64,000 nt of DNA from Candidatus Woesearchaeota archaeon. GTDB lineage: Archaea; Nanobdellota; Nanobdellia; Pacearchaeales; GW2011-AR1. Both the position numbers and the translations under genes were made by a program. Of the stretch, positions 913 through 36,758 are shown piece by piece; positions within the stretch are counted from its first letter, which is position 1; each line of letters begins with the position of its first letter. Under the pieces are notes generated by a model, which worked only from the letters and a program-made list of their open reading frames with translations, had not been told where the DNA came from and ran no database searches. The stretch is taken from contig CAYJQB010000001.1 in the NCBI GenBank assembly GCA_964372205.1, positions 226,967 to 290,966 of the forward strand, in the 5' to 3' direction.

Positions 913-1170
913 CTAGCAACAAGAAACGTCATAGAATTGTCTTCGCTGAAGAACTCTTCTTAATCTTCCAATTGCGTTATCTCTTATCTGTTCTACTCTC
1001 TGACGCGTCACGCCAAGAGATTGCCCTATGTCTTCTAGCATATTGTGTCCAAAATATATCTCTTCAAGAACAGTCCTTTCCCTTTCAGGCAAGAAACTCA
1101 TCCCATAAGTCAAAAGGTCTCTCTGTTCATGAGTTTCTATTGGAGAAACCACCAATGTTCGATAAACCAT
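913..1170 (-). CDS. small sigma-70 region-4-like HTH protein
   Basis: LPERERTVLEEIYFG...LEDIGQSLGVTRQRVEQIRDNAIGRLRR matches the sigma70 region 4 / ECF HTH pattern (RE..VL....G.....IG...GVTR.RV.QI...A...LR). Confidence 0.5.
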   Translation of the reverse strand: MVYRTLVVSPIETHEQRDLLTYGMSFLPERERTVLEEIYFGHNMLEDIGQSLGVTRQRVEQIRDNAIGRLRRVLQRRQFYDVSCC

Positions 1171-2853: not shown

Positions 2854-3459
2854 TTAAATATTTGCGCTTTGATTGGCACCAAGTCTTCTTCCTGTTTTCA
2901 TATTCTCAATTATAATTCCAACTCTCTTCATCCTTGTTTCAGGCCTCTTCGCATGAAGTAGCCATCTGAAATACATTCTCTTTTGAGATGGGGGAAGTTT
3001 TTCAAAATTCTCCTTGGCTGTTTTATTCTTCTTTTTTTCAAGCTCCGCCTTCAAATCCTCTGGCATATCAGGATTCTTAGGTATTCCATGATCATGCGGT
3101 TTCTTAGTCAAACCGAGTTCAAACATCTCTTTTCCAAAATCAGACATTTTCCCTTGAGAAATCATCTCTCTAGCTCTTGCAAAAGTGTTATCGCTCCATC
3201 TGCTTGTCTTTTTTCTCTTAACAAATGTAACTCCATACTTTTCATCATCTATTCTTTTCAACGTTGTATCAATCCATCCAAAACATATTGCCTCATTCAT
3301 AGCAATACTTTGATTGAACATTCCTTTTCCAGTATGTTTTTTGTATCTTATTAGCAGAACTCTATCTTCTTTCAAGTGATTCTTTTCAAGCCATGCTCTC
3401 CACTGCTCAACATTTTCACAAGTGATTTGTTTTATTTTCTCTTTATTATTCATCATCAT
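2854..3459 (-). CDS. YdeI/OmpD-associated (OmdA-domain) family protein
   Basis: W..WL..NH at N-terminus, CFGWID motif, C-terminal LPPSQKRMYFRWLLHAKRPETRMKRV typical of the YdeI/OmdA family. Confidence 0.55.
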   Translation of the reverse strand: MMMNNKEKIKQITCENVEQWRAWLEKNHLKEDRVLLIRYKKHTGKGMFNQSIAMNEAICFGWIDTTLKRIDDEKYGVTFVKRKKTSRWSDNTFARAREMISQGKMSDFGKEMFELGLTKKPHDHGIPKNPDMPEDLKAELEKKKNKTAKENFEKLPPSQKRMYFRWLLHAKRPETRMKRVGIIIENMKTGRRLGANQSANI

Positions 3460-6400
3460 AATCTTTCTATTGTTGTCCAGCCAACTAATCTTCTTAAATT
3501 ATCTATAAGTTTTGCCCATCCGTTACCCTCTCCTTCTGGAGAATAATTCAAGTTTCCTATTGGCGCTCCCCCAGAATTCATAAAGATACTATTTATCTCT
3601 GCATCACTTAAATCTCTATCGTAGAAACGAAATTCATCCATCATTCCCGTAAATTGATTAGCCGAGTTCCAAGGGTCTGCACCAAGAGCAAGAACATGAG
3701 TGAGTGTTAAGATAGGACCAGAAGCTGAGATTTCTTCTACTTTCTGCCCATCAATCCACAAACTAAGGAATAATCCATCATAGCGAACCACATAATGATG
3801 CCATTCCTCATCTCCAACTATAGTATGGGAAAGCCCGTAGGTATTATCATCAGTCGCAAGTCCTGCCGTAACCGTATTGGCGTCTGAAAAGCTCAGAGCA
3901 ATCTTATTGGGATGTGCATAGAATACCTTCCCGTCAGAATCAGAAAGATTACGCTTCACCCAAACGCCAATAGTAACAGCCTCAAGACCATTAAGTTCAG
4001 AAAAGTGCGTTTGCTGTAGATAACTAATGTTAGTAGTTTCTGAGAAAATCAATGAATTGCCATTAACTCCTTCACCATAAGTAGGTTCCATATTAGTAAG
4101 AAGTAAATGATTTCCTCGTCCAGACATATCAATATATTGACCATCAAAAGGCATGTAAACCAAAAGATCTGGATCCTCCGTATTTACTACCTGAATAGTT
4201 TTCTGATGGATATCTGTTCTGCCTGAAGAATCAACAGCAGTCAATGAAATAGCATGTTCTTCAACGAGAACAGTACGCAGGGAAAAGGTTGCATTGTTAA
4301 TGCGAATCCTATTCGTATCTCCACCACATCCAAGAGATTCCTTCTTCAGATAAACAGGACGAAGATCATTCTGCGGTGAGATACGGATATAATCGCTACC
4401 AATCTCTCGGATGATATATATTCTCGCATTTGACAGAGGAGAAGGAAGCCCCGTTCCATCAAAAGCAGTAACCATGACGAACTGTTCCAAAAATAGTCCA
4501 GTTGGATCAATGTATAATTTGCTAAACTCTAACTCTTGCTCATCCGTCAAATCATAATAAAAACATTCCCCATTGTCGTAATAATGTGTAGGAGGAAGGT
4601 TGAAGTGAAACTCCTTGAAATCAAGAGCACTATCAGCAGTATCCAGTTGAAGTGAAAGAGTATCTCCGTTGCCAACTACATTACCATTATCTTTCCATTC
4701 TTCACTTTGCAAAGATCCAACGCAAGCATAAGACCCGCTATAGAAATCAATCTCAGAACCACTAAAAACAAACTTGTTATTACCAGTTTTCAACGGATCA
4801 CTTCCAATAAGAGAAACTGGATTAGAGGAAATCTCGCAAGGTCTAAAATAACTCCAAGGTCCTTTTCTCGGAGTGGAATCTTCAAGATAAGATAAGTCTA
4901 CTACTTCTCGAGAACTATCCTCCAGGAGAGAATCATCCGGCCCGACAAAGCCGTAGGCTCCCCGTTCACGATTAACAGTTGGATATACAGTACCAATAGT
5001 CAATTCATCTCTGAATGTAGAATTAAGAGTATCGTGATTATTTGAAACATCCTGAGAATTAGTCATATTTTGTTCAGGAAAATCAAAATCGCTGAAGACC
5101 GCATTGACAGCAAATAAGTTCTTTTGCAGTTCTCCGTCAAGTTCAGGTACTTGAGTACCTCTTTCTCTCCAAACCCAGTTAACTCCGGGATTTCCAAAAT
5201 GCGCAAAGTAAAGATGATCCGTTGCTGCTGGTTGATTCTGAACAGGACCATCATTGATATTTTCAACAAAGACATTAACGAACGCCAAATCACTGATGCC
5301 ATATATGGCACAATCATAGAGGATGTTCTGGCTACCTAAAATACGATGTGCCAACACCCCATAATTAATTACATTTTCTACACGTCCATTGCACGAACCT
5401 GAAAAATATTGGAACACGTCCGTGTGATGGTCCAAAATGGAACCATCTAACCAATATATTTCTGTGTTTAAGACTAATTTAGAATTTTGCACCACGTCAC
5501 CAGATGACTTCTCAATCAACGATCCACGAAGGAGTTGCGCATCCGTAAATCCGTAAATCATGTCATAAGAATGAGAATTTGTTACATAGTAGCCAGAGTA
5601 ATCGGTTCTGAACGGACTAGACCCTCCATTGGAGTCTCCCCATCCTTTAGATTTTGTAATGAGGACATCGTCCAGCCAGACAGCATAATTTGTGTAAAAC
5701 TGAGAAACACGTGAAAAATCAACAGCAATATCCTGTAACTTTAATCGTTTTAGCTTTCCTCTCAAGTCGCTGTGGATAGGAAGATTCCAGCTATCCCAAT
5801 AAAAAAATAATCCATCTACATCTGGGTCATAAGCATAATTAACATCATCAGGATACACAGTTCCTTGGTCAATACCATAGGTTAGAAATACCTTTTTGCC
5901 ATTAATACTAGGATCGGAAGTGATTGTTACCCAGTGTTCAAACCCAGATAATGTACCACTTCGCATATTTGTTACACCATAATGGCCTTCTTCAAGCAGA
6001 ACAATCGTGCTCCCTTCATACCTTGCAGGATCGCTTGCCATGGTTTCAAAAGCTTGCCTGATAGTTCGATGTGGATTGTCCCTTGACCCATCAGTAACAG
6101 GTTGTTGATTGCTTGGTTGCACATACAATGTAGCAGAATTGGTATATGTATCGTTGCTATTTGTATACAAAAACATCGAATGTTCTCCAATCGTGATACG
6201 TTCTGTTCCAGGAATGTTATCATAGAGTTTGGTTCCATCAATTGCTCCTGATAGAACTCGCGGTTTCCCTTCGAAGGGATATATTATGGCGCGTACTTCA
6301 ATCATTTGGTCAGTAACGCTTGATGCGTTCACGCCGACAGTGTACTCATAGACATCCGTTCGTGAATTAAGAGTCATTTCGGAGACTGCTAAAAAAGGTC

Positions 6401-7418
6401 CTCCGTTAAGGGAGAACTCCAGCCTATTAATTCCTACCTTATGAAACGCAACAATTCCCAAGTTAAAGAGATTCCCAACCATATCACTGCTTCCACCAAA
6501 GCGTTGATAAGGAACAACGTCCCACCTTGCAATTGCCTGTGCATCTTCTTCAACCCCAATTGTCTCAGATATAGTATTTCCAAAACTATCAATTATTGGT
6601 CCGCTGTTGTCAACTAAAATTCCGTTTTCAAACCTCCAGTCACCATTAAAGCCCAAACCAGGAACAAGGATGACTCCATTCTCAGTAACATTTCCTTCAT
6701 CAGTTTCATCTCCATCATCCGTGCTTTGACATCCAGGATCAACCGGAAAGTCAATAAGTCCATCACCATCATCATCAGCTCCATTAGAACAAGCAGGAGA
6801 GCTTCCTCCACCTCCTCCCCCACCGCCACCTCCTCCTCCGCCTCCTCCATTCCCACGAGTTCCATCATCCCCATCTCCACCTTCATCTAACTGACAATTT
6901 ATAGGAGAGACAGCAGAACAATACCCAAAAGATTCAGAACCAGCAGATATCTGAACATAATCAACACTCGACACTTCATCTCTAGAAAAGCTGAACTCTT
7001 TACTTCCAGGAGATAAATCGACTTTTCTCACAAACGGAAGGAATGCAAGCCAATCAATAGTTTTTCTTACGGCAATGCTCAAAGGAGAAAAATAAACATC
7101 TTCAGAAAAACTATCGTCAAGGTTTTCAGTTGGATCTCCAAAAACAAAGTTTATAGAATCAACATTATCCAGATTTCCCTCAACAGTAACTTTCACTTCA
7201 TCATTATCATATAAACAAGAAATCGGTCTTACAGAAGCTTCACTACAGAACTCTTCCAAAGACTGAGTTGTTCCTTCTGCTCCAGAACTTGTACCCTTTC
7301 CATCTGTAATAAGTTGAGGAAGAAACACAAGAAGTATTCCAACTGTAACAACAACTATAGCAAGAACTAGATAATGCACTGGCTGTAATGTAAACCACCC
7401 TCTTTTAATCATTTTCAT
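3456..7418 (-). CDS. giant secreted/surface protein (1320 aa) with N-terminal signal anchor, 16-Gly tract, DDDGDGLID Ca-binding-type motif, C-terminal ConA/LamG-like lectin domain
   Basis: Continuous 1320-aa ORF; N-terminal TM (LVLAIVVVTVGILLVFL); poly-G plus acidic D-x-D-G-D motifs; C-terminal region with lectin-like HYVVRYDGLFLSLWIDGQKV pattern; paralogue of the adjacent gene. Confidence 0.85.
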   Translation of the reverse strand: MKMIKRGWFTLQPVHYLVLAIVVVTVGILLVFLPQLITDGKGTSSGAEGTTQSLEEFCSEASVRPISCLYDNDEVKVTVEGNLDNVDSINFVFGDPTENLDDSFSEDVYFSPLSIAVRKTIDWLAFLPFVRKVDLSPGSKEFSFSRDEVSSVDYVQISAGSESFGYCSAVSPINCQLDEGGDGDDGTRGNGGGGGGGGGGGGGGGSSPACSNGADDDGDGLIDFPVDPGCQSTDDGDETDEGNVTENGVILVPGLGFNGDWRFENGILVDNSGPIIDSFGNTISETIGVEEDAQAIARWDVVPYQRFGGSSDMVGNLFNLGIVAFHKVGINRLEFSLNGGPFLAVSEMTLNSRTDVYEYTVGVNASSVTDQMIEVRAIIYPFEGKPRVLSGAIDGTKLYDNIPGTERITIGEHSMFLYTNSNDTYTNSATLYVQPSNQQPVTDGSRDNPHRTIRQAFETMASDPARYEGSTIVLLEEGHYGVTNMRSGTLSGFEHWVTITSDPSINGKKVFLTYGIDQGTVYPDDVNYAYDPDVDGLFFYWDSWNLPIHSDLRGKLKRLKLQDIAVDFSRVSQFYTNYAVWLDDVLITKSKGWGDSNGGSSPFRTDYSGYYVTNSHSYDMIYGFTDAQLLRGSLIEKSSGDVVQNSKLVLNTEIYWLDGSILDHHTDVFQYFSGSCNGRVENVINYGVLAHRILGSQNILYDCAIYGISDLAFVNVFVENINDGPVQNQPAATDHLYFAHFGNPGVNWVWRERGTQVPELDGELQKNLFAVNAVFSDFDFPEQNMTNSQDVSNNHDTLNSTFRDELTIGTVYPTVNRERGAYGFVGPDDSLLEDSSREVVDLSYLEDSTPRKGPWSYFRPCEISSNPVSLIGSDPLKTGNNKFVFSGSEIDFYSGSYACVGSLQSEEWKDNGNVVGNGDTLSLQLDTADSALDFKEFHFNLPPTHYYDNGECFYYDLTDEQELEFSKLYIDPTGLFLEQFVMVTAFDGTGLPSPLSNARIYIIREIGSDYIRISPQNDLRPVYLKKESLGCGGDTNRIRINNATFSLRTVLVEEHAISLTAVDSSGRTDIHQKTIQVVNTEDPDLLVYMPFDGQYIDMSGRGNHLLLTNMEPTYGEGVNGNSLIFSETTNISYLQQTHFSELNGLEAVTIGVWVKRNLSDSDGKVFYAHPNKIALSFSDANTVTAGLATDDNTYGLSHTIVGDEEWHHYVVRYDGLFLSLWIDGQKVEEISASGPILTLTHVLALGADPWNSANQFTGMMDEFRFYDRDLSDAEINSIFMNSGGAPIGNLNYSPEGEGNGWAKLIDNLRRLVGWTTIERL
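6783..7418. repeat. ~640-bp direct repeat, copy 1 (5' end of giant gene 1; the first ~240 bp are 100% identical to copy 2, the rest ~90%)
   Basis: Nucleotide comparison of 6783-7418 with 11023-11656 by eye. Confidence 0.8.
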
Positions 7419-7444
7419 TAACCGAAGAATTTCTATTTAAACAT

Positions 7445-10400
7445 TTATATCTCTTCTATTGAAAACCCCAGAATTTTTTTAAAATTATCTATAAGTTTTG
7501 CCCATCCGTTACTCTCTTCTTCTGGAGAATAATTCAAGTCTCCTACAGGCAAGCCTCCACCCCCTAAACACGGATATGCACCCACATACCCTCCATCGTC
7601 AGCCATGGAGCAAGGATCTACAGGAGGTTCTCCAATAGGACTGGATTCTGTAAGATGATAATCTCCATTTGCTTCATCAATGAATACCAATGACATGTCA
7701 AGTTCCTGGCTTTCAAAATAGTTGCTAAGATTATAAGTCCTCTGTTGCCAATGATCTGTAACAAACAAGTTATGGTGACGATCATAATTTGGACCAACAG
7801 CACCCCCACCAAAAATATTATTTTTTACAACTACATTCTGGAAGTTGTCTCCGAATCCGATAGAACCAACAAGAGAATTACGTTCAATAGTGATTCCATT
7901 AGGGCTCCTTCCTTCATAGGACGAGTTCCAGCCAGATATGCCTACATTTCCGTGATTATACCTGAAGGTTATTCGTTCAGATTCTGAAACAGTCATATCA
8001 GTTGCATTAATAACAGTATTATTTTCTACTAATATGTCTTGGCTATTCTGGTATGTGGATATGGAATTGCCGTGCTGTCCAGCGCTATCATGAATATAGT
8101 TATCAGAGATTATTCCATCTTTAGCAAATGCAAAGTATATACCAGTTCTTCCCACACGAGTAATTTCATTACTTCTAACTAAAAATCCCGTACCCTGAAC
8201 TGACGAATTTCTTCCCCCTATACTTATTCCTCTTCCAATCAAAGTATCATGGATATAATTGTTTTCAATCAAGAGGTTATCTGCGAGGAGAATGCCAATA
8301 GAGAATCCTTTGATATGCCTTAGCTCATTATTTCGAATCTCAATATTTTGAATATCTGAATTGCTACCTTTATCGCGATTAACGATAGGCGTTCCCACAT
8401 ATCCTTCAATAGTAAATCCATCAATGATAATGTTGTTTTTTCCATTTAGCTCAAAAGCAATATTTTTACCAAATTCCTGTATGTTGTTTACAGAAGAAAG
8501 AGGCCAAAGATAGATTCTTGACATATCATAATCAACATAAAACTCTCCAGGCTCGTCCATAATCGATGGATGATTCCAAAGAGAATAAGTGTCTTTATCC
8601 TGTTCAAGAGAGGTATCTAAAGATTCGAAAGTAACTATGTGTAAATTAGGGTCATAAGTAAGAATCTCACGATAAAAGATGTTATTATTTCCTGAGTGGA
8701 TAATTAAGTAGCTTCCAACCCAGTAATTTGAATCAGGGTGAGTAAACACTGCAGCATCCGTGATAGAAGTTTGAGTAATTTCGGATGGACTGTACCATCC
8801 ATCAGGCTTATTAAAATATAATTTGTCTACAGGTGTTGGATCTTGTGCAACACTAAGCAAGGTGCTCTCCTCAAATAGCACAACTTCTTCTATTGGAGGA
8901 AGATTCGATTTATTAACATAATATACATTCTGCCAATTCGGATTATCTTGGCATTCTGCTTGCGAGGCACAGAGTTGCCAACCTGGAAGACTACTAAATC
9001 CAGAGACGACTGGTTTTTCCCCAGGGTACGCCTTAAATGTTATTGGTTGCCCCGGAAGCCCTTCATTATTAAACCAGACCGAAATATCTTCATCTCGCGC
9101 ATCGTAATGATAACCAATTTCATCGTAGACTCCTTCTCTGACTAAAACTGTATCTCTAGGCTGTATAACATCTGCTGCATGCTGTAGTGTTTTCCAAGGT
9201 TGTGAAATTGTTCCAGGATTTCCATCATTTCCGGAGGTGCTGACATAATAAGTAGCTTCTTCATCAGTGCTATTCTCTGTATTGTCATCGGAAGATAAGC
9301 ATTCAAGATCAAGCCCATAATCAATAAGTCCATCTCCATCATTGTCTTCAAAGTCTCTGCATTCAGGAGGATTTATTCTATACTTATTCCACATAGCTTC
9401 TGCAAATCCACTGATGTATCCAGCGCCGCCAGTATTGTTGTCTTGTCCATGTCTATATGGAAATCTTCCAATTCCATCAGAAGGGTCACTATCCATTATA
9501 CATGAGCTGAGATTGTTTGGATTTTCTCCATAAGTCACTTTATAGAACTCAGGTATCAGATTCTCACATCTGACTCCTCCACAATCATCATTAGGAGATG
9601 GTCCATGATCTACTCCACAAAGTTGGCCATTATAATCTCCTCCATTACATTGTCCCCCAGCACAATATCCATTAGGACAGGCGTTCACGTTCGCGTAAGT
9701 GCATACATTTCCATTATTGCTTCCTCCAACACAATATCCCATCACCGGAGCACATATATCTGGTTGTGCCCACGCCCCAAGATTAACCCATCTGTTGACA
9801 TAATCCTCAAACAATTGATTATTCCAGACATTTTTTGCTTCAGGCAATAATTGATTTATAAGAACAGAGCCTTTCCATATCAAGCTGTTTATTCCTTTCT
9901 GATAACTTGTTCCTGGAACAACTCCTCCATCAATATACCCATAAGGATCGGAAAGAGTTCTGCTTGCAGAATCAGTAGCAAGAGCTCTCCAATACCAAGA
10001 GGTTCCCTCTCCAAACAAAACTGTCCCAACTCCACTATTTGCCTGTGGATAGAAAGTCAAAAATCCATCTTCTTGGAAGGTCATCTTAGGAGCATTCATA
10101 ACGTCATCTTTCCAGGTTTGATTGTTGAAAAGTAATGCCGTGAATATTATAGGAGTCTTTCTCCCACTTCCATGTCCCCCATTTGGATACCAAACTCCAC
10201 CGTTATCCATTATGTGATAAAGGTCTATTCCCATCTGCATGTAATGCACTAATTGAGGAAACTTATCTTCGTAAGTGTCATTTAACATGAATCTTAATGC
10301 AGCGTCCCCATTATCTATAGCTACTCTACCACCATAACCTCTGTAACTCCCACTCCTATTGTAATTATCATAAGGTCTTACCTGTTCACCCGGATAACTT

Positions 10401-11656
10401 CCAATATCCAATTGTACTCTTCTAAACCTGTCATCCATCCATGAAAAACTTTCAGAAGAATAACCTGTTGGAGGCTCAAGACTTAACAGAATATCTTTAT
10501 TAATTTCTAATGTAGAGTACATTGGCTTGGCATTTCCAAAGAAAGGAGGTCTGAACACTGTAAGTCCTGCATTTGCGGGAACGCTCTCAAGAACAGTAAG
10601 CACAGCAGCAGTTTGCAAACAAGGTCTACAACCAGAGTCATTCAACGGCTCTAAAGATATTGTTTTAATGATTGAATCTCCAGGTTGTGCAGTATATGGA
10701 AGCACAGGAACAAGAGAGCTGTTGTAAAGAGGACCTGCTCTTGAGTCAAATGGTTGTTCTTTAGTGGTCTTGTAATTAACAGTCCATCCATGATGGCTTC
10801 CGTCATAGTCAGGAGTCATACTTGTGATGGTTACAGGCCCCACAACCCAATAATCACCATTCGCGAACTGTCCATATTCTACATCTTCAGAAAAAGTCCA
10901 AGTTATTCCATACTGCGATAAACTAGAATTATAATCTCCTTCAGGATTGTATTCGTCATTGTCGCTAGTATCATCACATCCTGAATCTTCCAAATCAATA
11001 AGTCCATCACCATCATCATCAACACCATTAGAACAAGCAGGAGAGCTTCCTCCACCTCCTCCCCCACCGCCACCTCCTCCTCCGCCTCCTCCATTCCCAC
11101 GAGTTCCATCATCCCCATCTCCACCTTCATCTAACTGACAATTTATAGGAGAGACAGCAGAACAATACCCAAAAGATTCAGAACCAGCAGATATCTGAAC
11201 ATAATCAACACTCGACACTTCATCTCTAGAAAAGCTGAACTCTTTACTTCCAGGAGATAAATCAACCTTTCTCACAAACGGAAGAAATGCAAGCCAGTCA
11301 ACAGTCTTTTGCACAAGAATCCCAAGAGGAGAGAAATAAACATCTTCAGAAATACTATCATCAAGATTTTCAGTTGGATCTCCAAAAACAAAGTTTATTG
11401 AATCAACATTATCAAGATTTCCCTCAACAGTAACTTTAACCTCATCATTATCATATAAACAAGAAATAGGTTTTACAGAAGCTTCACTACAAAACTGTTC
11501 CAAAGATTGTGTTGTTCCATCTGCTCCTGAAGAAGTAGAATTTCCATCACTAATCAACTGAGGAAGAAACACAAGAAGTATTCCAACTGTAACAACAATT
11601 ATAGCAAGAACTAGATAATGCACAGGCTGTAATGTAAACCACCCTCTTTTAAACAT
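7445..11656 (-). CDS. giant secreted/surface protein (1403 aa) with signal anchor, 16-Gly tract, Cys-rich module and right-handed parallel beta-helix (pectate-lyase-fold) repeats
   Basis: Continuous 1403-aa ORF; first ~230 aa nearly identical to the neighbouring gene; Cys-rich CAPVMGYCVGG...CNGG block; repeated NNxIxxxxxxGI / IENNYIHD beta-helix repeats; conserved C-terminal ~40 aa shared with the paralogue. Confidence 0.85.
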   Translation of the reverse strand: MFKRGWFTLQPVHYLVLAIIVVTVGILLVFLPQLISDGNSTSSGADGTTQSLEQFCSEASVKPISCLYDNDEVKVTVEGNLDNVDSINFVFGDPTENLDDSISEDVYFSPLGILVQKTVDWLAFLPFVRKVDLSPGSKEFSFSRDEVSSVDYVQISAGSESFGYCSAVSPINCQLDEGGDGDDGTRGNGGGGGGGGGGGGGGGSSPACSNGVDDDGDGLIDLEDSGCDDTSDNDEYNPEGDYNSSLSQYGITWTFSEDVEYGQFANGDYWVVGPVTITSMTPDYDGSHHGWTVNYKTTKEQPFDSRAGPLYNSSLVPVLPYTAQPGDSIIKTISLEPLNDSGCRPCLQTAAVLTVLESVPANAGLTVFRPPFFGNAKPMYSTLEINKDILLSLEPPTGYSSESFSWMDDRFRRVQLDIGSYPGEQVRPYDNYNRSGSYRGYGGRVAIDNGDAALRFMLNDTYEDKFPQLVHYMQMGIDLYHIMDNGGVWYPNGGHGSGRKTPIIFTALLFNNQTWKDDVMNAPKMTFQEDGFLTFYPQANSGVGTVLFGEGTSWYWRALATDSASRTLSDPYGYIDGGVVPGTSYQKGINSLIWKGSVLINQLLPEAKNVWNNQLFEDYVNRWVNLGAWAQPDICAPVMGYCVGGSNNGNVCTYANVNACPNGYCAGGQCNGGDYNGQLCGVDHGPSPNDDCGGVRCENLIPEFYKVTYGENPNNLSSCIMDSDPSDGIGRFPYRHGQDNNTGGAGYISGFAEAMWNKYRINPPECRDFEDNDGDGLIDYGLDLECLSSDDNTENSTDEEATYYVSTSGNDGNPGTISQPWKTLQHAADVIQPRDTVLVREGVYDEIGYHYDARDEDISVWFNNEGLPGQPITFKAYPGEKPVVSGFSSLPGWQLCASQAECQDNPNWQNVYYVNKSNLPPIEEVVLFEESTLLSVAQDPTPVDKLYFNKPDGWYSPSEITQTSITDAAVFTHPDSNYWVGSYLIIHSGNNNIFYREILTYDPNLHIVTFESLDTSLEQDKDTYSLWNHPSIMDEPGEFYVDYDMSRIYLWPLSSVNNIQEFGKNIAFELNGKNNIIIDGFTIEGYVGTPIVNRDKGSNSDIQNIEIRNNELRHIKGFSIGILLADNLLIENNYIHDTLIGRGISIGGRNSSVQGTGFLVRSNEITRVGRTGIYFAFAKDGIISDNYIHDSAGQHGNSISTYQNSQDILVENNTVINATDMTVSESERITFRYNHGNVGISGWNSSYEGRSPNGITIERNSLVGSIGFGDNFQNVVVKNNIFGGGAVGPNYDRHHNLFVTDHWQQRTYNLSNYFESQELDMSLVFIDEANGDYHLTESSPIGEPPVDPCSMADDGGYVGAYPCLGGGGLPVGDLNYSPEEESNGWAKLIDNFKKILGFSIEEI
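11023..11656. repeat. ~640-bp direct repeat, copy 2 (5' end of giant gene 2)
   Basis: See copy 1. Confidence 0.8.
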
Positions 11657-11696
11657 GCCTTCTAAGAGAAATATTTCTATTTAAGCATTTAGAAAT

Positions 11697-12164
11697 TTAT
11701 ACAAGAGCAATATTCAAGGTAAACGCAAATCCACACCAGACTAAATAGGGCAAAAGTATCCATCTAGTTCTTCTGTCAATTTTCCCGGAGACGATTATCA
11801 TTCCAATTATAGTTATTATTATCAATGCCAGGTTTATCAAGGCAATAGTAGGTTTTTGCATTCCAAAGAAAAATATACTCCAAGTCATATTAAGAAACAG
11901 GTTAATCCCATAAATCCACGCAATACTTTTTTTCTCTTTCTTCCTGGCTTTGCTCCATGTCAGATATAGCGCTATCCCTATTAACAGATATAGAATTGTC
12001 CAAGCAATAGGGAATACAAAATCAGGTGGGGTGTAACTCGGTTTATTGATTTCATACCATTCACTATTTGCTCCGGGCGATGTGAACATACTTCCAATAG
12101 CTCCAGGCAAGAACGCCAGGATTACGCAAATCACCAATAGTTTCGTATTTACCCTCTTTTCCAT
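11697..12164 (-). CDS. tspO: TspO/MBR family tryptophan-rich sensory protein
   Basis: Five TM segments; WY..L.KPS..PP...FPIAWTILY..IGIA motif typical of TspO. Confidence 0.7.
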   Translation of the reverse strand: MEKRVNTKLLVICVILAFLPGAIGSMFTSPGANSEWYEINKPSYTPPDFVFPIAWTILYLLIGIALYLTWSKARKKEKKSIAWIYGINLFLNMTWSIFFFGMQKPTIALINLALIIITIIGMIIVSGKIDRRTRWILLPYLVWCGFAFTLNIALV

Positions 12165-12349
12165 AATTAATAAAAGAAAATAGAGTATAAAAACCTAATA
12201 GATTAGAAAAAGTATCTTCCATCAGCACCCGACATACATATCAGGAGCCAAGTTGTTTTTAATGTCTTCCTAGCTCCTGTCCATATTCCTTAGAATTTAT
12301 ATTTGTTATAGGTAATTAAAAACTAAAAAATAAAAAATATTTTGTGAGT

Positions 12350-12475
12350 TTATCTTCTAGCTCTTGTTGTTCTTCTAGCGCCTGTTGCTCTTGTTGTTCT
12401 TCTTGCAGCAGTTGTTGTTCTTCTAGCACCAGTTCTAGCTCTTGTTGTTCTTCTTTCAGCCATTTTATACCTCCT
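12350..12475. repeat. imperfect tandem repeat (unit ~ cttgttgttcttctagc) encoding an E/Q-rich 61-aa ORF on the minus strand
   Basis: Visible tandem repetition in the DNA; ORF 12316-12501 translates to EEQQ/LEEQQ low-complexity coiled-coil-like sequence. Confidence 0.4.
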
Positions 12476-12526
12476 TTCTGTAGATTACTATAGTAACTCA
12501 ATTATATAAAATTTGCTAATCTCCTC

Positions 12527-13426
12527 TTATTTACCGACGAGCTTAATGAGCACAGCTTTCTCTGCCCACATCCTGTTTTCAGCCTGATTATACACAATAC
12601 TTCTCTTTGAGTCCATCACTCCATCAGTCACTTCATGCCCCCTTCCAGCCGGAAGGCAATGCATAAACAACGCCTTTTTGCTTACATTGAACAATTTTTC
12701 GTTAACCTGGTAAGGCTTGAATATCTTCTCCCGAGACTTTTCCTGATTTGCAGGTATCTGATAACTCATCCAGCTATCCGTGTATATCACATCAGCATTC
12801 TGCACAGCTTTTTCAGCATCTTTCTCATAGACATACTTGACATTTCCAATAGCCTTAGGGTTAGGCATAAAATCTTTCCCAGAAGGGCAGGACACAACCA
12901 TCTTTGCCCCAATCTTTTCAGCTCCAAGAATCAAATCGTGAGTTACATTGTTGTTCCCATCACCCAAATATACTATTTTGATACCCTTTAACTTTCCAAG
13001 ATGTTCTTTGATTGTCATAAAATCTCCTAATATTTGGCAAGGATGATAGTAATTTGTTAACCCATTTATTATAGGCACATCGGAATTCAATGCCAGCTCT
13101 TCAATATCTCTATGCTCATACAGCCGAGCCATTACAACATCAACATATCTGCTTATAACTTTAGAAAAATCCTTTATAGATTCTTTTTTTCCAAGAGTCG
13201 AATCTCCTAAATTGTAGAAGATAGGATATCCCCCAAGCTGATGCATAGCCACCTCAAAGCTCAAATGTGTTCTTAACGAAGGTTTTGCAAATATCATAAG
13301 AAGAGTTTTCCCAGAAAGAGTTTTCATCTGTTTCTTAGGAGACTTCTTCAACTTAATTCCCAGATTAACTATCTCTAAAATTTCCTTTTCAGACAAATCT
13401 TTTATAGATAAAAGATGCTTTCTCAT
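12527..13426 (-). CDS. ornithine-carbamoyltransferase-family enzyme (OTC/PTC-like)
   Basis: Carbamoyl-phosphate motif region SLRTH (STRTR variant), HPCQ (HPxQ) and HCLP motifs typical of OTCases. Confidence 0.75.
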   Translation of the reverse strand: MRKHLLSIKDLSEKEILEIVNLGIKLKKSPKKQMKTLSGKTLLMIFAKPSLRTHLSFEVAMHQLGGYPIFYNLGDSTLGKKESIKDFSKVISRYVDVVMARLYEHRDIEELALNSDVPIINGLTNYYHPCQILGDFMTIKEHLGKLKGIKIVYLGDGNNNVTHDLILGAEKIGAKMVVSCPSGKDFMPNPKAIGNVKYVYEKDAEKAVQNADVIYTDSWMSYQIPANQEKSREKIFKPYQVNEKLFNVSKKALFMHCLPAGRGHEVTDGVMDSKRSIVYNQAENRMWAEKAVLIKLVGK

Positions 13427-14730
13427 ATAAACTTCCTCTTTTTTAGGACATTTTCAAGACTAAGTCCTATTTCAACAAGAGCATAAGTAACATTTACAAT
13501 AGGCTTCTTTGCCTTTATCAATCTGGAGAGTTTTATTGGTGTTCCGCTGACAATCACATCACAAGGAGTCCTGTTTATAGTATCTTGAAGTTCCTTTATC
13601 TGCTTCTTCCCATACCCCATTGCTGGAAGAACTTCAGTTACATGAGGATACTTAGAATAAGTTTCTTTTATAGAGCCAACAGAGTAAGGTTTTGGGCTGA
13701 CGATTGTAGCTCCACTATTCTTTGCAGCAATATAACCTGCTCCGAATTTCATCCCTCCATGAGTTAAAGTTGGACCATCCTCAACAATCAATGCTCTCTG
13801 CCCTGCTAAATGGTCTCTATCAATAGTCAGTTCAGAAGCGGCATGTATGACAATTGCTGATGGGTTGAATTTCTTTATGTTGTCTTCAATTTTAGTCACC
13901 CCTTCTTTAGGTGCTGTCTGGACTTTATTAATAACAATAACGTCAGCCATCCTAAAATTAGCTTCTCCGGGATGATATAGCAATTCATGCCCTGCTCTGA
14001 AAGGGTCCGTAACAACAATATGTAAATCCGGCTTGTAGAAAGGTAAGTCGTTATTTCCTCCATCCCAAAGGATTATGTCTGCTTCTTTTTCAGCCATTCT
14101 TATTATTTTCTCATAATCAACTCCGGCATAGATTACCATTCCTTCCCTTATCCAAGGTTCATATTCTTCTCTTTCTTCAATAGTGCAATCTTGCTTGTCA
14201 AAATCTTGATAGTTTGCAAATCTCTGCACCTCCTGTTTAATCAAATTTCCATAAGGCATAGGATGTCTTATAGCCACAACTCTCTTTCCTTTTTTCTTAA
14301 GAATCTCTGCAACTTTTCTTGTTGTCTGGCTTTTTCCACTTCCAGTCCTTACAGCACAAACAGCAATAACGGGCTTTTTTGATTTTATCATTGTGTCCTC
14401 TGCCCCCAATAAAACATAGGTTGCCCCATTTGCAATAGCTATAGATGCCTTATGCATGACTTCTTCATGAGTTATATCAGAATATGCAAATACAACTTCG
14501 TCTATCTTGTATTTCTTTATTAGTTCAGGAAGCTGTTCCTCAGGGAATATTGGAATATCTTGTTTGTATCTTTTTCCAGCAAGTTTTTTTGGAAAAGTCC
14601 TTTTTTCAATACCTGGGATTTGGGCAGCCGTAAAGAATTTAACATCATAGTGCGGACTATCTCTATATTTTACAATGAAATTATGAAAATCTCTTCCTCC
14701 AGCACCTATTATGGCAACGTTCCTCTTCAT
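13423..14730 (-). CDS. two-domain protein: N-terminal Rossmann-like domain plus MobB-like P-loop NTPase (possibly DUF1611 / cyclic-2,3-diphosphoglycerate-synthetase-like); function uncertain
   Basis: VAIIGAGGRDFHNF glycine-rich Rossmann start; Walker A VRTGSGKSQTT followed by VAIRH as in MobB-type P-loops; 4-nt overlaps with both neighbours. Confidence 0.35.
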   Translation of the reverse strand: MKRNVAIIGAGGRDFHNFIVKYRDSPHYDVKFFTAAQIPGIEKRTFPKKLAGKRYKQDIPIFPEEQLPELIKKYKIDEVVFAYSDITHEEVMHKASIAIANGATYVLLGAEDTMIKSKKPVIAVCAVRTGSGKSQTTRKVAEILKKKGKRVVAIRHPMPYGNLIKQEVQRFANYQDFDKQDCTIEEREEYEPWIREGMVIYAGVDYEKIIRMAEKEADIILWDGGNNDLPFYKPDLHIVVTDPFRAGHELLYHPGEANFRMADVIVINKVQTAPKEGVTKIEDNIKKFNPSAIVIHAASELTIDRDHLAGQRALIVEDGPTLTHGGMKFGAGYIAAKNSGATIVSPKPYSVGSIKETYSKYPHVTEVLPAMGYGKKQIKELQDTINRTPCDVIVSGTPIKLSRLIKAKKPIVNVTYALVEIGLSLENVLKKRKFI

Positions 14731-15161
14731 TTAAACCTCTTCTCATAAAAATAAAATGCATTTCCCTTTTTATATCCTATCTTTTCATTAAATTTTTGCA
14801 TCTTTTTGTTGTCAATTTTGACTATTTGAGTAATATATTTGAATCTCATTTTTTTCGCCTGTTTTTCACATTCCTCTACAAGCTTAGTGGCTATTCCCTC
14901 ACCTCTGAACTTCTGGAACACAAAAATATCGTTCAAAATTGTTTGCTTCACGCTTGGAATGTGATGGGCAATCAAGAACCCCTGTACCTCACTACCATTC
15001 TCGGCAATCAAGACAAGATTGTCTTTGTCATATTTTATCACCGCCTTAAGCCAATCTTTATCATAGGTATCTCCAGTAGCATTTGATTGCAACTCCGGAG
15101 TCTCTGTAAGTATTTTCCATAAAATATTGAAATCAGTCTCTTTTGCTTTTCGTATTTTCAT
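14727..15161 (-). CDS. GNAT family N-acetyltransferase
   Basis: QKFRGEGIATKLV acetyl-CoA binding motif (Q/RxxGxG/A). Confidence 0.7.
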   Translation of the reverse strand: MKIRKAKETDFNILWKILTETPELQSNATGDTYDKDWLKAVIKYDKDNLVLIAENGSEVQGFLIAHHIPSVKQTILNDIFVFQKFRGEGIATKLVEECEKQAKKMRFKYITQIVKIDNKKMQKFNEKIGYKKGNAFYFYEKRFK

Positions 15162-16045
15162 CTTGTAATTGTCGTCCCGCTTTTTCCTACTAATGCTTTA
15201 GTTATGTTTTCTATGTTTGTGATTATCACTTTTCCTCTTCTTTTTTCCAGAAAGTTTATCGCAGCCTGTATCTTTGGTCCCATGCTTCCAGGAGGAAAAT
15301 GACCTTCTTTGTAAAGTTTTTTTATTTCTTTCAAGCTAATTTTGTCAAGTCCTTTTTCATCAGAGGAGTTGTAGCTCAAATAAGCCCTATCAACATCAGT
15401 CACCATTATGAAAACCTCAGCCCCTGTCGAATTTGCAACGCACGCAGATGCTAAATCTTTATCAATTACAGCTTCAGCACCTTCTAATTTTCCATTTTTG
15501 TATATCACAGGAATCCCTCCTCCACCAGCAGCAATAACAACAGCCTTCTGTTTCAGAAGGTTATTTACAGACTCAGACTCAATTATTTTTATAGGATTAG
15601 GGGACGCAACGACTCTTCTGTATCCCCTGTCAGAATCTTTTTTTATTTTGAAATCATTTTTCAATCTATCAGCTTCCAGCTTTGTATAAAAAGGTCCAAT
15701 AAACTTTGTGGGATTCTTAAATCCAGAATCATTTTTATCTACAAGAACTTGAGTAATAAGAGTTATCACCTCTCTGTTCCTTAGAACATTATGCAGTTTT
15801 TGTTGTATCATATAACCTATTTGTCCTCCGGTCTCTGCATCTAATATATCAAGAGGAGCATTCTGTTGCATTAGTAAATAGCCAACCTGAGGTCCGTTTC
15901 CATGAGTTATCACAACATCATTCTTCTTTATCACAGGAGCAAGAGCCTTTATAGCTTTGGTAACATTTCTCTCCTGAGTATCAAATGTAGGTTTCTCTCC
16001 CTTTTTCAGAAGTGCATTTCCGCCAAGTGCAATCACAAGTCTCAT
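15158..16045 (-). CDS. arcC: carbamate kinase
   Basis: LVIALGGNAL...VVITHGNGPQVG hallmark motifs of carbamate kinase; 295 aa. Confidence 0.8.
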   Translation of the reverse strand: MRLVIALGGNALLKKGEKPTFDTQERNVTKAIKALAPVIKKNDVVITHGNGPQVGYLLMQQNAPLDILDAETGGQIGYMIQQKLHNVLRNREVITLITQVLVDKNDSGFKNPTKFIGPFYTKLEADRLKNDFKIKKDSDRGYRRVVASPNPIKIIESESVNNLLKQKAVVIAAGGGGIPVIYKNGKLEGAEAVIDKDLASACVANSTGAEVFIMVTDVDRAYLSYNSSDEKGLDKISLKEIKKLYKEGHFPPGSMGPKIQAAINFLEKRRGKVIITNIENITKALVGKSGTTITR

Positions 16046-17193
16046 TTCTTCAACACCCTTTCTATTTTATCCATTGCAGTTTCAATAAGTTTGTAGTCTG
16101 TTGCAAAACTACATCTTACATAACCCTCTCCATGAGGCCCGAATTCAGTTCCAGGTATCACTGCAACCTTTGCTTTTTCAAGAAGCATCTTTGCAAATCT
16201 GCTTGAGTTGTTACTATACCTCTGAATATTTGAAAAAGTGTAAAATGCTCCAGAAGGAGTTATAGTGGGCATGTTAAGTTCATTCAATCTTTTAACAATA
16301 AGGTCCCTTCTTCTTTTATACTCTTTGTTCATTGAATTGATATATTTCTTATCGAGAGAAAGAGCTTTGATTCCCATAAACTGTGGTAAGCTAGGTGGAG
16401 AGACAGTCATGTAATAGTGGGATTTATTCATATCACGAATAAGTTTTTTAGGACCGATAGCATAACCTAATCTAAATCCACACATTGCAAATGTCTTTGA
16501 GAATGTTTGGAATGTTGCAACATAGTCTTCCATACCATTCAAACTTCCAACAGACACATGTTTTTTGTCATCGTAAATTATTTGTTCGTATGCTTCATCT
16601 GAAAAGATGTAAATATTTTTGTCAACAGCAACATCTGCCAATTCCTCCAGGATTTTTTTTGAAAGAACAGTTCCGGTTGGATTTCCAGGAGTGTTGATTA
16701 TTATTGCCTTTGTCTTTCTAGGATTTATCATTTTTTTAAGCTCATCAGGGTTTATTGAAAATCCCTCTTCTTCTTTAAGTTTCAAGAATACTGGAACTCC
16801 ATTTGCAAGTTCTACAACAGGCCTATATCCAGCATATCCAGGACTTGTCATAATAATCTGTTCAGTTGGATCAATAGAAGTCAATATAGCAGAAAAAAGA
16901 GCTTCCTGACTTCCACAAGTTACTAATACCCTATCAATATCCGCATTTATTTTATTTTCTTTTTTGACTTTTTTGATTATAGCTTCTCTTAATTCTTTCA
17001 TCCCCCTAGGGTCAGAATAATGAGTAGCTTTGTCTATCATTTTCTTAGCATAGTCCAATAAAGGTTTAGGAGTGATAAAATCCGGTTCTCCAGGCCCTAG
17101 AGAAATCACTTTCTTGTCATTGATGACTCTATCAAAAATTTTAGGAAATTCCAGTTCAGGAAGTTGCAACTCTCTTTCAGACAGATGTACCAT
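16042..17193 (-). CDS. class I/II pyridoxal-phosphate aminotransferase (AspAT-like)
   Basis: FSKTFAMCGFRLGY (SxSKxFxMxGxRxGY PLP-lysine motif), 383 aa. Confidence 0.8.
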   Translation of the reverse strand: MVHLSERELQLPELEFPKIFDRVINDKKVISLGPGEPDFITPKPLLDYAKKMIDKATHYSDPRGMKELREAIIKKVKKENKINADIDRVLVTCGSQEALFSAILTSIDPTEQIIMTSPGYAGYRPVVELANGVPVFLKLKEEEGFSINPDELKKMINPRKTKAIIINTPGNPTGTVLSKKILEELADVAVDKNIYIFSDEAYEQIIYDDKKHVSVGSLNGMEDYVATFQTFSKTFAMCGFRLGYAIGPKKLIRDMNKSHYYMTVSPPSLPQFMGIKALSLDKKYINSMNKEYKRRRDLIVKRLNELNMPTITPSGAFYTFSNIQRYSNNSSRFAKMLLEKAKVAVIPGTEFGPHGEGYVRCSFATDYKLIETAMDKIERVLKK

Positions 17194-17278
17194 ATAGCCT
17201 CTTTGTCCTCTTAATTTCGGAAAGATTGTTTAAATAAGTTCCCAATAGTATTTAAAAGCCAATCCGAGCTGAGATTAT

Positions 17279-17776
17279 ATGGACGAAAGTAGAGTTTATT
17301 TCCATCGCATTCCACAGACAGATTGGACTTTCATTGCAGATTCTAAAAGGCAGATAATCGGTTCTGTAAAATCTATAAATCATGAGAGATGGAAAGCCCA
17401 TAGAGATAGAAATCAGCAATTGGTTGTGCCTAATCTGGACGCAATCATCTCTTTGGCTTATGTTAATATTCCATTCGTCTTTCCAGACTCTACAAATGTC
17501 TCCGAAGAAGTTAGAATAGCCCCCAGAGTAAGCATCCACTTTGATTTAAGAGATGTAGGGTATCTAATGAGCTTAAGGGATATGACTTGGCAGGCAGGAG
17601 AGCTCTCTGGTTTTTACACAGGAAAAGATTCAATAACATTTACACCTGAAAGAATTATAGATGCAATTTCCGACTATGACTGGGAAAGTCATATTGAAAG
17701 AATGATGCCTCTAATTACTCAACCCGTTCCTGTAAGAAAAGTAATCCACAGGGCTCATCACACAAGGGAAATTTAG
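17279..17776 (+). CDS. hypothetical protein
   Basis: 165-aa ORF; competing 95-aa minus ORF overlaps its 5' part. Confidence 0.35.
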   Translation: MDESRVYFHRIPQTDWTFIADSKRQIIGSVKSINHERWKAHRDRNQQLVVPNLDAIISLAYVNIPFVFPDSTNVSEEVRIAPRVSIHFDLRDVGYLMSLRDMTWQAGELSGFYTGKDSITFTPERIIDAISDYDWESHIERMMPLITQPVPVRKVIHRAHHTREI

Positions 17777-18246
17777 CTTTGTTTGTTCCAATCAGAATTA
17801 ATCTTAGTCAAGAACTCTTGCATTTTTGGATTGAAGTCTGCATTCCAGAATTTCACACTATCATCTATAAATTCAGCTTCTCTTTTCTTGTCTTTAGAAA
17901 GTCCAACCAAAGTATTCCTGCTTGCAAGTTCCATAGCCTTTCTTATTAGTCTCCATAGATCATTCCTTTCTTGTTGACTAAGAGATTTGCTTTCAGAATT
18001 CATTATCATGTCAGAAGGGTTTGGAAATATCAGATTATACATGTAAGAGTTCCAGTTCATCAAATTTTCAGAGATTCGCGAACAAATTTGTCTCGAGAGT
18101 GCGTCGCTAACAAAACCATCTTTCAAAATAGCATCTTTCACAAAAAATATTTTTTCAATATCTTGGAAACTTGATTTGAAGCCAAGCTCTTTCTGCATTT
18201 TTTCAAAACTCTTCTCAAACTCCTCTAAAAGTTCATGTTTGCTCAT
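17773..18246 (-). CDS. hypothetical protein
   Basis: 157-aa ORF, 4-nt overlap with downstream phosphoesterase gene start region. Confidence 0.4.
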   Translation of the reverse strand: MSKHELLEEFEKSFEKMQKELGFKSSFQDIEKIFFVKDAILKDGFVSDALSRQICSRISENLMNWNSYMYNLIFPNPSDMIMNSESKSLSQQERNDLWRLIRKAMELASRNTLVGLSKDKKREAEFIDDSVKFWNADFNPKMQEFLTKINSDWNKQS

Positions 18247-20530: not shown

Positions 20531-20674
20531 TGGCCCCGAGGGGATTTGAACCCCCGACACCTGGATTTCTCCTTTCTGGCAATCTTAGTTTCTTTGATTT
20601 CCAGGGAAACTTTCTTTTCTAAAGAAAGTAAGCCTTAAGAGTCCAGTGCTCTAACCAGGCTGAGCTACGAGGCC
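20531..20674 (-). tRNA. tRNA-Lys (anticodon CTT) with 69-nt intron at canonical 37/38 position
   Basis: Hand-folded cloverleaf: acceptor GGCCTCG/CGGGGCC, D-stem GCTC/GAGC, anticodon stem CTGGA/TCCAG with loop CTCTTAA, T-arm GGGGG-TTCAAAT-CCCCT, discriminator A; anticodon 3' strand displaced by a 69-nt insert; BRE/TATA (tttaaaaa) ~28 nt upstream. Confidence 0.8.
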
Positions 20675-36597: not shown

Positions 36598-36758
36598 TTT
36601 CCATATGCTCCAAAAACAACGGCTAGTACAATCAGTATTCCCATTATTCCGCCAAATAACCAACCAAACACACTTCCAAAAGCAGTGATTATAGCTGTTG
36701 CGGCTCCAGTGGACAAAACTATTATGGCCATTATTATTGTTATTATCAATTTTTCCAT
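36594..36758 (-). CDS. 54-aa Gly-rich double-TM peptide (GlsB/YeaQ/YmgE-like transglycosylase-associated family?)
   Basis: Hand-found ORF MEKLIITIIMAIIVLSTGAATAIITAFGSVFGWLFGGIMGILIVLAVVFGAYGK with GGAGGT Shine-Dalgarno-like sequence 8 nt upstream; translationally coupled to the next gene. Confidence 0.45.
   Translation of the reverse strand: MEKLIITIIMAIIVLSTGAATAIITAFGSVFGWLFGGIMGILIVLAVVFGAYGK

Follow-up and report, generated by a model that had tools for sequence, protein, structure and literature searches.

Two tandem giant predicted surface-protein genes of a Pacearchaeota-like archaeon with shared ends and different passengers

How can two neighbouring genes be nearly identical at their ends and unrelated in between? 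The question is raised by a tandem pair of giant genes, here called A and B, in a 64-kb stretch of the archaeal contig CAYJQB010000001.1 (the window, to which coordinates refer unless another contig is named). DPANN archaea spend a large share of their tiny genomes on huge surface proteins thought to mediate contact with host cells, and modular evolution with conserved ends is well documented for bacterial and parasite adhesins. An earlier inspection of the same DNA without database searches (the sequence-only reading) had reported two adjacent giant genes of 1320 and 1403 amino acids (aa), and the open reading frame (ORF) calls bore this out. A and B lie 26 nucleotides (nt) apart on the same strand, within the minus-strand order OTCase, TspO, B, A and a YdeI/OmdA-like gene (Table 1). 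Both proteins are acidic (pI ~4.3), and their middles, ~1000 aa each, are unrelated to each other and belong to separate homolog families. We consider it probable, on the basis of the comparisons below, that gene conversion has homogenised the shared stalk and tail and that the middles have been replaced through the conserved ends; our confidence in what the proteins do is lower.

Each protein can be divided into a shared N-terminal part (N-module), a type-specific middle (passenger) and a C-tail. In A, the N-module is followed by an acidic repeat, an Ig-like domain with a beta-helix and beta-sandwiches, a LamG domain and the C-tail; in B, it is followed by an acidic repeat, a domain that we call mid1, a second acidic repeat, a beta-helix and the C-tail. 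The N-module consists of a hydrophobic anchor (aa ~12-33, preceded by K/R and the sole hydrophobic segment of each protein), an S/T/G linker, a beta-rich region of ~120 aa with four conserved cysteines, an acidic linker with 15 glycines, and the start of an acidic disulfide repeat. Both proteins are predicted to be displayed extracellularly.

At the nucleotide level, positions 1-666 of B align without gaps to positions 7-672 of A with 50 mismatches (92.5% identity), and the proteins are 90.7% identical over 236 aa at the N-terminus, where similarity then stops abruptly, within the first acidic repeat and after GDGLID. The block includes 239 nt without a mismatch, in agreement with the ~640 bp of shared start and the ~240-bp perfect stretch reported earlier. 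Given 46 mismatches in the 393 nt just upstream, a mismatch-free run of this length has P ~1e-13. These 46 differences show a coding pattern (proportion of synonymous differences, pS, 0.29; of nonsynonymous differences, pN, 0.066; pN/pS 0.23), indicating two distinct N-module copies under purifying selection. The 239-nt tract is the latest gene-conversion tract, and it ends where the type-specific junction begins. The glycine run inside it had been counted as 16 residues, or (GGN)16; it is an imperfect (GGN)15 run that encodes 15 glycines (GNG15).

Sharing extends beyond the coding sequence. A 19-nt promoter-like motif, TAAATGYTTAAATAGAAAT, is common to A and B; these two matches are the only ones in the window, and the motif is kept upstream of L011g and L012g, the two homologs described below, too. 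It may act as a promoter. A scan for sigma-70 promoters and terminators stayed at background level; its model is bacterial and the host archaeal. The start of A is probably the ATG at 7412, giving 1318 aa, because this codon lies 20 nt from the motif, as does the ATG of B, and is in register with the start codons of B, L011g and L012g. The 3′ ends of A and B are 78% identical without gaps over 113 nt and 56% identical over 39 aa. The ~90% identity proposed for the last ~100 bp therefore fails as a uniform figure: a 58-nt block has 2 mismatches (97%; 3496-3553 versus 7482-7539), and beyond it the final ~40 nt are divergent.

The Pacearchaeota-containing metagenome Ga0210057 supplied L011g and L012g, each on a contig of its own, L011 (87 kb) and L012 (115 kb). 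These two genes were the only relatives of the N-module found, after the search profile had taken in the copy from an NCBI Pacearchaeota assembly (L002). L011g (1709 aa) is the complete form of a gene of Candidatus Pacearchaeota archaeon CG10, the organism under which the best relative of B is annotated. It carries, in order, the N-module, the Gly tract, a B-type junction (LEDSGC...DNDEYNP), mid1, a beta-helix, PKD, LamG and a tail ending KKILGFSIEEI. L012g (1523 aa) carries the N-module, the Gly tract, the same junction as A (FPVDPGCQSTDDGDETDE), a passenger unrelated to that of A, made up of thrombospondin type 3 (TSP3)-like repeats and a B-like beta-helix, and the same tail as A (NLRRLVGWTTIERL).

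The four genes group differently along their length. N-module identity is 90.7% for A and B and 92.3% for L011g and L012g, versus 52-55% for all cross-genome protein pairs, and the difference at fourfold degenerate sites is 0.13 and 0.12 within genomes and 0.38-0.45 across them. Of the quartet-informative sites in nt 1-666, 165 join A with B and L011g with L012g, and 0 and 0 support the alternatives. In nt 667-740, 12 sites join A with L012g and B with L011g, versus 1 and 2 for the other groupings. Tail sites are split, 11 by type and 7 by genome, and those 7 sit in the 58-nt block. The 5′ block thus groups by genome, the type markers by ortholog and the tail in both ways, which is the discordance along the gene expected of paralog families that, like the bab genes of Helicobacter pylori, evolve by gene conversion. 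The homogenised region ends at the same place in both lineages, just after GDGLID.

Gene order supplies the history against which these groupings have to be read. On either side of A, the window and L012 have the same gene order (YdeI-like gene, 85%; an ORF pair, 64%; metallophosphoesterase, 78%; CDC48, 88%). Directly upstream of L012g, 15 nt left over from a B-type 3′ end (ATAGAAGAGATATAA) precede the promoter motif, and upstream of the B-type gene in L011 is a ~80-nt relic of the 3′ end of TspO (83% over 108 nt). The junctions and tails, the collinearity of L012 and the two relics identify A with L012g and B with L011g as positional orthologs. Type orthology, synteny and the relics further indicate that the ancestral order was TspO-B-A and that both gene types predate the lineage split. 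Because the promoter and N-module are near-identical within each lineage although the gene types are older than the split, we conclude that gene conversion has acted between the paralogs.

The window also holds ~10 kb more than L012 between the ORF at 17773-18246 and gene A (7445-17770 in the window versus 7856-7980 in L012). The additional segment contains gene B, TspO, OTCase, a cobW-like gene, an amino-acid kinase and an aminotransferase (arginine-type biosynthesis). This difference and the 15-nt and ~80-nt relics point to a rearrangement or deletion in the L012/L011 lineage.

The swapping of passengers between conserved ends, proposed earlier, is supported at both loci. At the syntenic A locus, BLAST detected no similarity between aa 250-1285 of A and aa 244-1487 of L012g. 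B and L011g are 88-92% identical at aa ~250-800; identity is 80% and then 65% over aa 801-900, and ~33% at aa ~900-1350. The breakpoint would lie near aa ~880-900 (window ~8960-9020), and the last segment has a pS of 0.70 and diverges more than any of six syntenic genes (60-88% aa identity). PKD and LamG are present in L011g and absent from B, and the LamG domain plus tail of A resembles that of L011g (34% over 279 aa). The unrelated passengers at the A locus, the drop in identity between B and L011g, and the distribution of LamG and PKD indicate that modules were exchanged among family members. As judged from these alignments, replacement of the passenger was complete at the A locus and in B began near aa 900; the breakpoints are placed at the junction, within the beta-helix and ahead of the tail.

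We propose that A and B belong to a small family, restricted to one lineage, in a Pacearchaeota-like DPANN archaeon. Its giant acidic proteins would be extracellular and anchored in the membrane, each built from an anchor/stalk (the N-module), a passenger and a tail, and the TspO-B-A tandem is the ancestral arrangement. Non-reciprocal homologous recombination between the paralogs would keep the promoter, the N-module and, in this genome, the 58-nt tail block near-identical. The conserved ends would at the same time serve as recombination anchors for the occasional replacement of whole passenger segments over evolutionary time. Selection for a common stalk may drive the homogenisation; the stalk would face one partner common to both proteins, located in membrane, envelope or secretion apparatus. 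The domain content, together with the LamG/PKD proteins of other DPANN archaea, suggests that the proteins bind or cleave envelope or environmental polysaccharides; for host attachment, domain content is what hints at such a role.

Several points weigh against this account. Assembler consensus could slightly inflate the perfection of the 239-nt tract, within which a second assembly of the population, L001, has 2 differences. A recent inter-lineage transfer of the 5′ part of B was sought through synonymous divergence; its fourfold difference of 0.28-0.37 falls within the range of the six syntenic genes (0.25-0.66), a contrast too small for precise dating. L011 and L012 are separate contigs of one metagenome and are not proven to be one genome; the argument holds either way.

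Near-identical repeats in metagenomes invite the suspicion that a collapsed or chimeric repeat in short-read assembly produced the shared 5′ block or its perfect tract. The ENA assembly ERZ13693047 (L001), which represents the same population and is 99.97-100% identical to the window, indeed breaks at the repeat, where a scaffold gap and junk sequence interrupt the Gly tract, and in L002 the corresponding regions of the homolog contain N gaps, which explains why the L002 protein is "partial" and without an N-module. L001 begins exactly at window position 7019, however, which is the first base of the perfect tract; a genuine repeat in two copies makes a contig break at just this boundary. In addition, the 46 sites that distinguish the copies within their first 393 nt follow a coding pattern (pN/pS 0.23), and on the long contigs of an independent metagenome two paralogs are again built in this way, their homology stopping at the identical codon. 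The 46 distinct sites and the independent metagenome speak against an assembly artefact, which we regard as very improbable. Between L001 1-365 and window 6759-7019 there are two base differences in the repeat, GGT/GGA in the Gly run and AAC/AAT; the latter adjoins codons that discriminate A from B and is repeated in the main contig. These differences may represent population heterogeneity at the edge of a conversion tract or errors at low coverage (4x). As assemblies of one population, the two agree except for a single base at the edge of the tract and, outside the locus near window 2989-3019, an unaligned stretch of 10 versus 31 nt. Gene conversion would be unnecessary had the genes duplicated recently in tandem and then diverged, or had purifying selection by itself kept their ends alike. 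The adjacency of the genes on one strand and the purifying selection on the N-module (pN/pS 0.23) fit such an account. It is already contradicted, and hardly credible, since the middles are non-homologous with separate homolog families, the gene types predate the split yet N-module synonymous sites differ by 0.12-0.13 within and 0.38-0.45 between genomes, and 239 nt without any synonymous change are beyond the reach of selection.

Part of the earlier proposal of recombination-driven shuffling stands, namely recombination at the conserved ends (165 of 165 sites by genome in the 5′ block, junction and extreme tail by type); no evidence points to an active programmed cassette or antigenic-variation system. 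In such a system, A, B and unseen copies would exchange cassettes at high frequency inside the population and switch adhesin specificity over ecological time, like pilE/pilS, vlsE or bab chimeras. The conserved 5′ and 3′ anchors and the very recent 239-nt conversion tract would suit it, as would the single-base difference between two assemblies at the tract edge and the analogy with the H. pylori bab genes (PMC4552749). Searching the 64-kb window with both proteins by tblastn nevertheless returned just two module copies, both complete genes with their own promoter-like motif, and no silent or partial cassettes; membership of the pilE/pilS or vlsE type, with promoterless or partial silent copies, was accordingly rejected within the window. 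No recombinase, invertase or diversity-generating retroelement is among the genes annotated beside the locus; a repeat search of 3000-12500 revealed no pair resembling the template and variable repeats of such a retroelement, although no systematic scan of the window for reverse transcriptase was made. The assemblies also agree on gene A at 99.97-100%, and the observed passenger swaps are old, on a between-lineage scale. Programmed variation is, on balance, improbable. The N-module might also be like an archaeal type IV pilin with a class III signal peptide, processed by a prepilin peptidase and displayed on or in a pilus-like fibre instead of being held by a transmembrane helix. This idea is compatible with homogenised ends and replaced passengers and does not exclude them. 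The N-termini of A and B read M(F/I)KRG and continue with ~24 hydrophobic residues before a small beta-rich domain; the giant neighbouring gene in L002 begins MFKRGVSSVVVTVLIVLL, which is very pilin-like; DUF7289 gave weak matches (E=0.04-0.45); and an anchor, a small beta domain and a Gly linker recur in other DPANN homologs. Against it, the KRG motif is missing from L011g and L012g (MIKKERLVYY...), a W at position +1 is atypical for a class III signal (FlaFind-type motifs), no pilin family in Pfam or NCBIfam matched at a useful E-value, and no pilus machinery was identified in the window. Membership in the class III signal peptide/pilin group was rejected on the missing KRG and the lack of a profile match, and we consider a pilin-like stalk unlikely.

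Table 1. Coordinates of the tandem genes A and B and of their parts in the window
Feature	Position	Strand	Remarks
Gene A	3456-7418	minus	ORF 1320 aa, translated; identical gene in independent ENA assembly
Gene B	7445-11656	minus	ORF 1403 aa, translated; ortholog L011g/P0051 in Pacearchaeota
Homogenised 5′ block, B copy	10991-11656	minus	N-module coding, aa 1-222
Homogenised 5′ block, A copy	6747-7418	minus	aligns to B copy
239-nt perfect tract, B copy	11025-11263	minus	(GGN)15 run at 11048-11092
239-nt perfect tract, A copy	6781-7019	minus	(GGN)15 run at 6804-6848
Promoter-like motif TAAATGCTTAAATAGAAAT upstream of B	11673-11691	minus	holds archaeal TATA-like TTAAATAG
Promoter-like motif upstream of A	7429-7447	minus	begins with stop codon of B
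Acidic double-disulfide repeat 1 of B (C-SNG-V-DDDGDGLID-LEDSG-C)	10970-11041	minus	NF033662 29.5 bits, cut-off 41
Acidic double-disulfide repeat of A	6723-6797	minus	NF033662; A-type junction FPVDPGCQSTDDGDETDE identical in L012g
mid1 domain of B (aa 236-760)	9377-10951	minus	predicted beta-sandwich + helical subdomain; Cys-rich insert aa ~636-720, window ~9497-9751
Second acidic disulfide repeat of B (aa 764-799)	9260-9367	minus	NF033662 profile
Right-handed beta-helix region of B (aa ~800-1360)	7577-9259	minus	Beta_helix, DUF1565, GH141_M (Pfam)
Passenger of A (aa 240-1130): Ig-like, right-handed beta-helix, beta-sandwiches	4029-6701	minus	homolog family, AF2 model, Foldseek
LamG/concanavalin-A-like domain of A (aa 1136-1276)	3591-4013	minus	PF13385
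C-tail of A (GGAPIG-NLNYSPEGEGNGWAKLIDNLRRLVGWTTIERL)	3459-3581	minus	last 15 aa identical in L012g
C-tail of B (GGLPVG-DLNYSPEEESNGWAKLIDNFKKILGFSIEEI)	7448-7567	minus	ending KKILGFSIEEI identical in L011g

The closest functional analogue of homogenised ends with exchanged passengers is the H. pylori bab family. The genes babA, babB and babC have an N-terminal homology region, a type-defining variable middle and a C-terminal homology region, with intragenomic gene conversion at the 5′ and 3′ ends (PMC4552749). A and B are likewise homogenised at 5′ and 3′ blocks and type-specific in the middle. There is no sequence homology, however; A and B are archaeal, N-terminally anchored multidomain proteins, whereas the bab products are bacterial beta-barrel outer-membrane proteins. 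The middles of A and B are unrelated domain sets rather than diverged versions of one domain, and A and B are without a phase-variable dinucleotide repeat. The mechanism is well supported in an under-studied group, yet it is not a new kind of system.

Profiles and AlphaFold2 (AF2) models assigned LamG, beta-helices and mid1 to the two middles. The LamG domain of A matches PF13385 with 74 bits (cut-off 27.6; E=1.8e-20; profile positions 9-151 of 151). The A passenger family occurs with other N-termini in many bacteria, and two members (P0002, P0003) are 36% identical over 90% of the query, LamG included. An AF2 model of the passenger with a predicted local distance difference test score (pLDDT) of 74 contains an Ig-like domain and a right-handed beta-helix. 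The beta-helix has no Pfam match, and its assignment comes from the model together with Foldseek, which matched it in the PDB to the GH136 lacto-N-biosidase 6kqs (E=6e-5, probability 1.0), to 2uve (GH28) and to 6qps (PL6). The sequence-only reading had correctly recognised DDDGDGLID, LamG in A, and in B a Cys-rich module with a beta-helix (Beta_helix/DUF1565 in Pfam), but its contrast of a lectin with a beta-helix is incomplete because A, too, holds a right-handed beta-helix.

In B, mid1 has 659 homologs, most of them without a Pfam domain in that region; it is widespread, uncharacterised and elsewhere fused to LamG, FN3, PKD, dockerin or T9SS domains. Its AF2 model has a pLDDT of 95.9, and comparison of the fold with the PDB gave no significant match, with weak resemblances to alpha/alpha-toroid lyases and hydrolases. 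The beta-helix of B matches PF13229 (31.4 bits versus 25.9) and PF07602, the DUF1565 cap (21.2 versus 20.3). A sequence search of the PDB returned the GH120 xylosidase 3vst for B (E=8.5e-6, an N-terminal match) and otherwise noise. B was tried and rejected as the pectate lyase PelN (NF041899), matching in the cap at aa 799-888 alone with 48.6 bits against a cut-off of 740. Because just this N-terminal cap matches, the earlier description "pectate-lyase-type" holds at the fold level alone.

Both passengers therefore bear comparison with right-handed beta-helix carbohydrate-active enzymes (CAZymes). The A passenger is alike at the fold level (Foldseek E=6e-5 to 4e-3), and B at the profile level (PF13229 and PF07602 above their cut-offs; 3vst), where no family-specific model reaches its cut-off. 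Sequence identity with 6kqs, the exopolygalacturonase 2uve, the lyase 6qps and 3vst is 9-12%. The passengers are predicted to be carbohydrate-directed, both containing right-handed beta-helix CAZyme-like domains, and they may bind or cleave glycans.

The acidic repeat in which the shared region ends has the form C-x4-DDDGDGLID-x5-C and occurs at aa 208-232 of A and at aa 206-229 and 764-799 of B. These units match NF033662, an acidic double-disulfide repeat with TSP3-type/MopE-like Ca-binding motifs (E=7e-5 and 5e-7). The scores of 22.4 bits (A) and 29.5 bits (B) are under the curated cut-off of 41, and the motif is clearly visible. The repeat is probably Ca-binding. A and B differ from the NF033662 arrangement in having one or two isolated linker units at domain boundaries, the first of them at the recombination boundary.

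No further relatives of the N-module emerged from a word-indexed search of 5.8 billion proteins, a GTDB genome scan, a first JGI metagenome scan or an exhaustive phmmer search of 1.84 billion representative proteins. These empty results are explained by assemblies that gap at the shared module and leave the recorded protein partial, without its N-module. Exact look-ups of A and B in protein records likewise returned none, and A is on record solely as a 1139-aa fragment. The N-module and C-tail pair belongs to no described family.

The C-tail is short and amphipathic-looking in both proteins. In each, GGG(A/L)P(I/V)G leads into LNYSPE-x-E-x-NGWAKLIDN, after which the ending differs by type. Among the DPANN-like homologs of B, several (P0052, P0053, P0056) end in short aromatic amphipathic-looking stretches (...FNSIKEFFNWIKNLF, ...FFTKLAMGWFR). 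Such endings recall the WAKLIDNLRRLVGW tail and may represent a recurrent C-terminal docking or sorting helix. On a doubtful further suggestion, the N-module and C-tail may form a dedicated Pacearchaeota display scaffold, in which an anchor/pilin-derived stalk and a C-terminal sorting/docking helix would be read by lineage-specific machinery (tail consensus GGG-A/L-P-x-G ... SPE..E...W..L..N, then a type-specific ending). Into such a scaffold, recombination could insert any glycan-directed passenger; the exchange would change the host or substrate specificity of an episymbiont, and gene conversion would keep the scaffold compatible with its partner.

Two genes outside the tandem show similar designs. 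The gene at 35917-36663 (minus) encodes a predicted surface protein (MNRKGDLFHWILCL...) with an N-terminal R/K-G plus hydrophobic start and a TSP3-like repeat. The gene at L002 15423-18593 (plus; 1056 aa) starts with MFKRGVSSVVVTVLIVLL and has a small 4-Cys domain, two acidic disulfide repeats and an NHL/SBBP propeller. Together these genes suggest a wider design of anchor, small beta domain and acidic repeat in these archaea.

A DPANN-type archaeal host, in line with the episymbiotic or small-cell archaeon supposed earlier, is supported by several window genes (CDC48, an Rpb1-type RNA polymerase subunit and class I tRNA synthetases; GC ~36%). The best relatives of the window IleRS, 60-68% identical, are in Woesearchaeota and Pacearchaeota genomes (GTDB). 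CDC48, Rpb1, an intron-type tRNA, the IleRS relatives and the CG10 relative of B place the host in the Pacearchaeota/Woesearchaeota group of DPANN archaea. The tRNA is a 144-nt Rfam match at 20531-20674 (minus), absent from the ARAGORN output and probably an intron-containing archaeal tRNA.

In Nanohaloarchaeota, SVXNc_0801-0831 are clustered large secreted or membrane-bound LamG/PKD and adhesin-like proteins proposed to act in host recognition, and the cited passages describe LamG/PKD surface proteins as commonly proposed DPANN host-recognition factors (PMC10266531). A shares LamG with such giants, and the B ortholog L011g shares PKD and LamG. Compared with what these passages describe (PMC10266531), the orphan N-module and C-tail, the beta-helix passengers and the concerted evolution with passenger replacement are peculiar to the A/B family. 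A limited full-text literature search located no description of gene conversion or such modular evolution among DPANN surface-protein paralogs. The locus thereby offers a sequence-level archaeal example of how DPANN surface proteins may diversify, with a concerted stalk and exchanged, putatively carbohydrate-directed passengers. Contig breaks at the shared module explain why genes of this kind are fragmented or "partial" in short-read metagenome-assembled genomes. Two undescribed elements also emerge from the locus: the pair of N-module and C-tail, and mid1, which is widespread and has a confident predicted fold with no solved-structure match.

Some minor features of the region deserve mention. 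The earlier remark on spurious antisense ORFs applies to one 54-aa plus-strand ORF, which is trivial; the other, of 90 aa, is in an alternative frame of the coding strand. Between TspO and OTCase, a 61-aa ORF at 12316-12501 (minus) encodes glutamate/glutamine-rich repeats (EEQQELELVLEEQQLLQEEQQEQQALEEQQELE) and contains 9/18/27/51-nt tandem repeats. An ORF at L012 5869-6714 (plus) matches Sigma-70 regions 2 and 4, and the ORF at window 913-1170 (minus), equivalent to L001 5981-6238 (plus), matches Sigma-70 region 4 alone. Such ORFs are unusual for archaea and may be helix-turn-helix regulators or of mobile-element origin. Finally, the 558-aa protein encoded at 36941-38617 (minus) matches the abortive-infection phage-resistance-like AIPR family (PF10592, E=1.7e-35) and may be the product of a defence gene.

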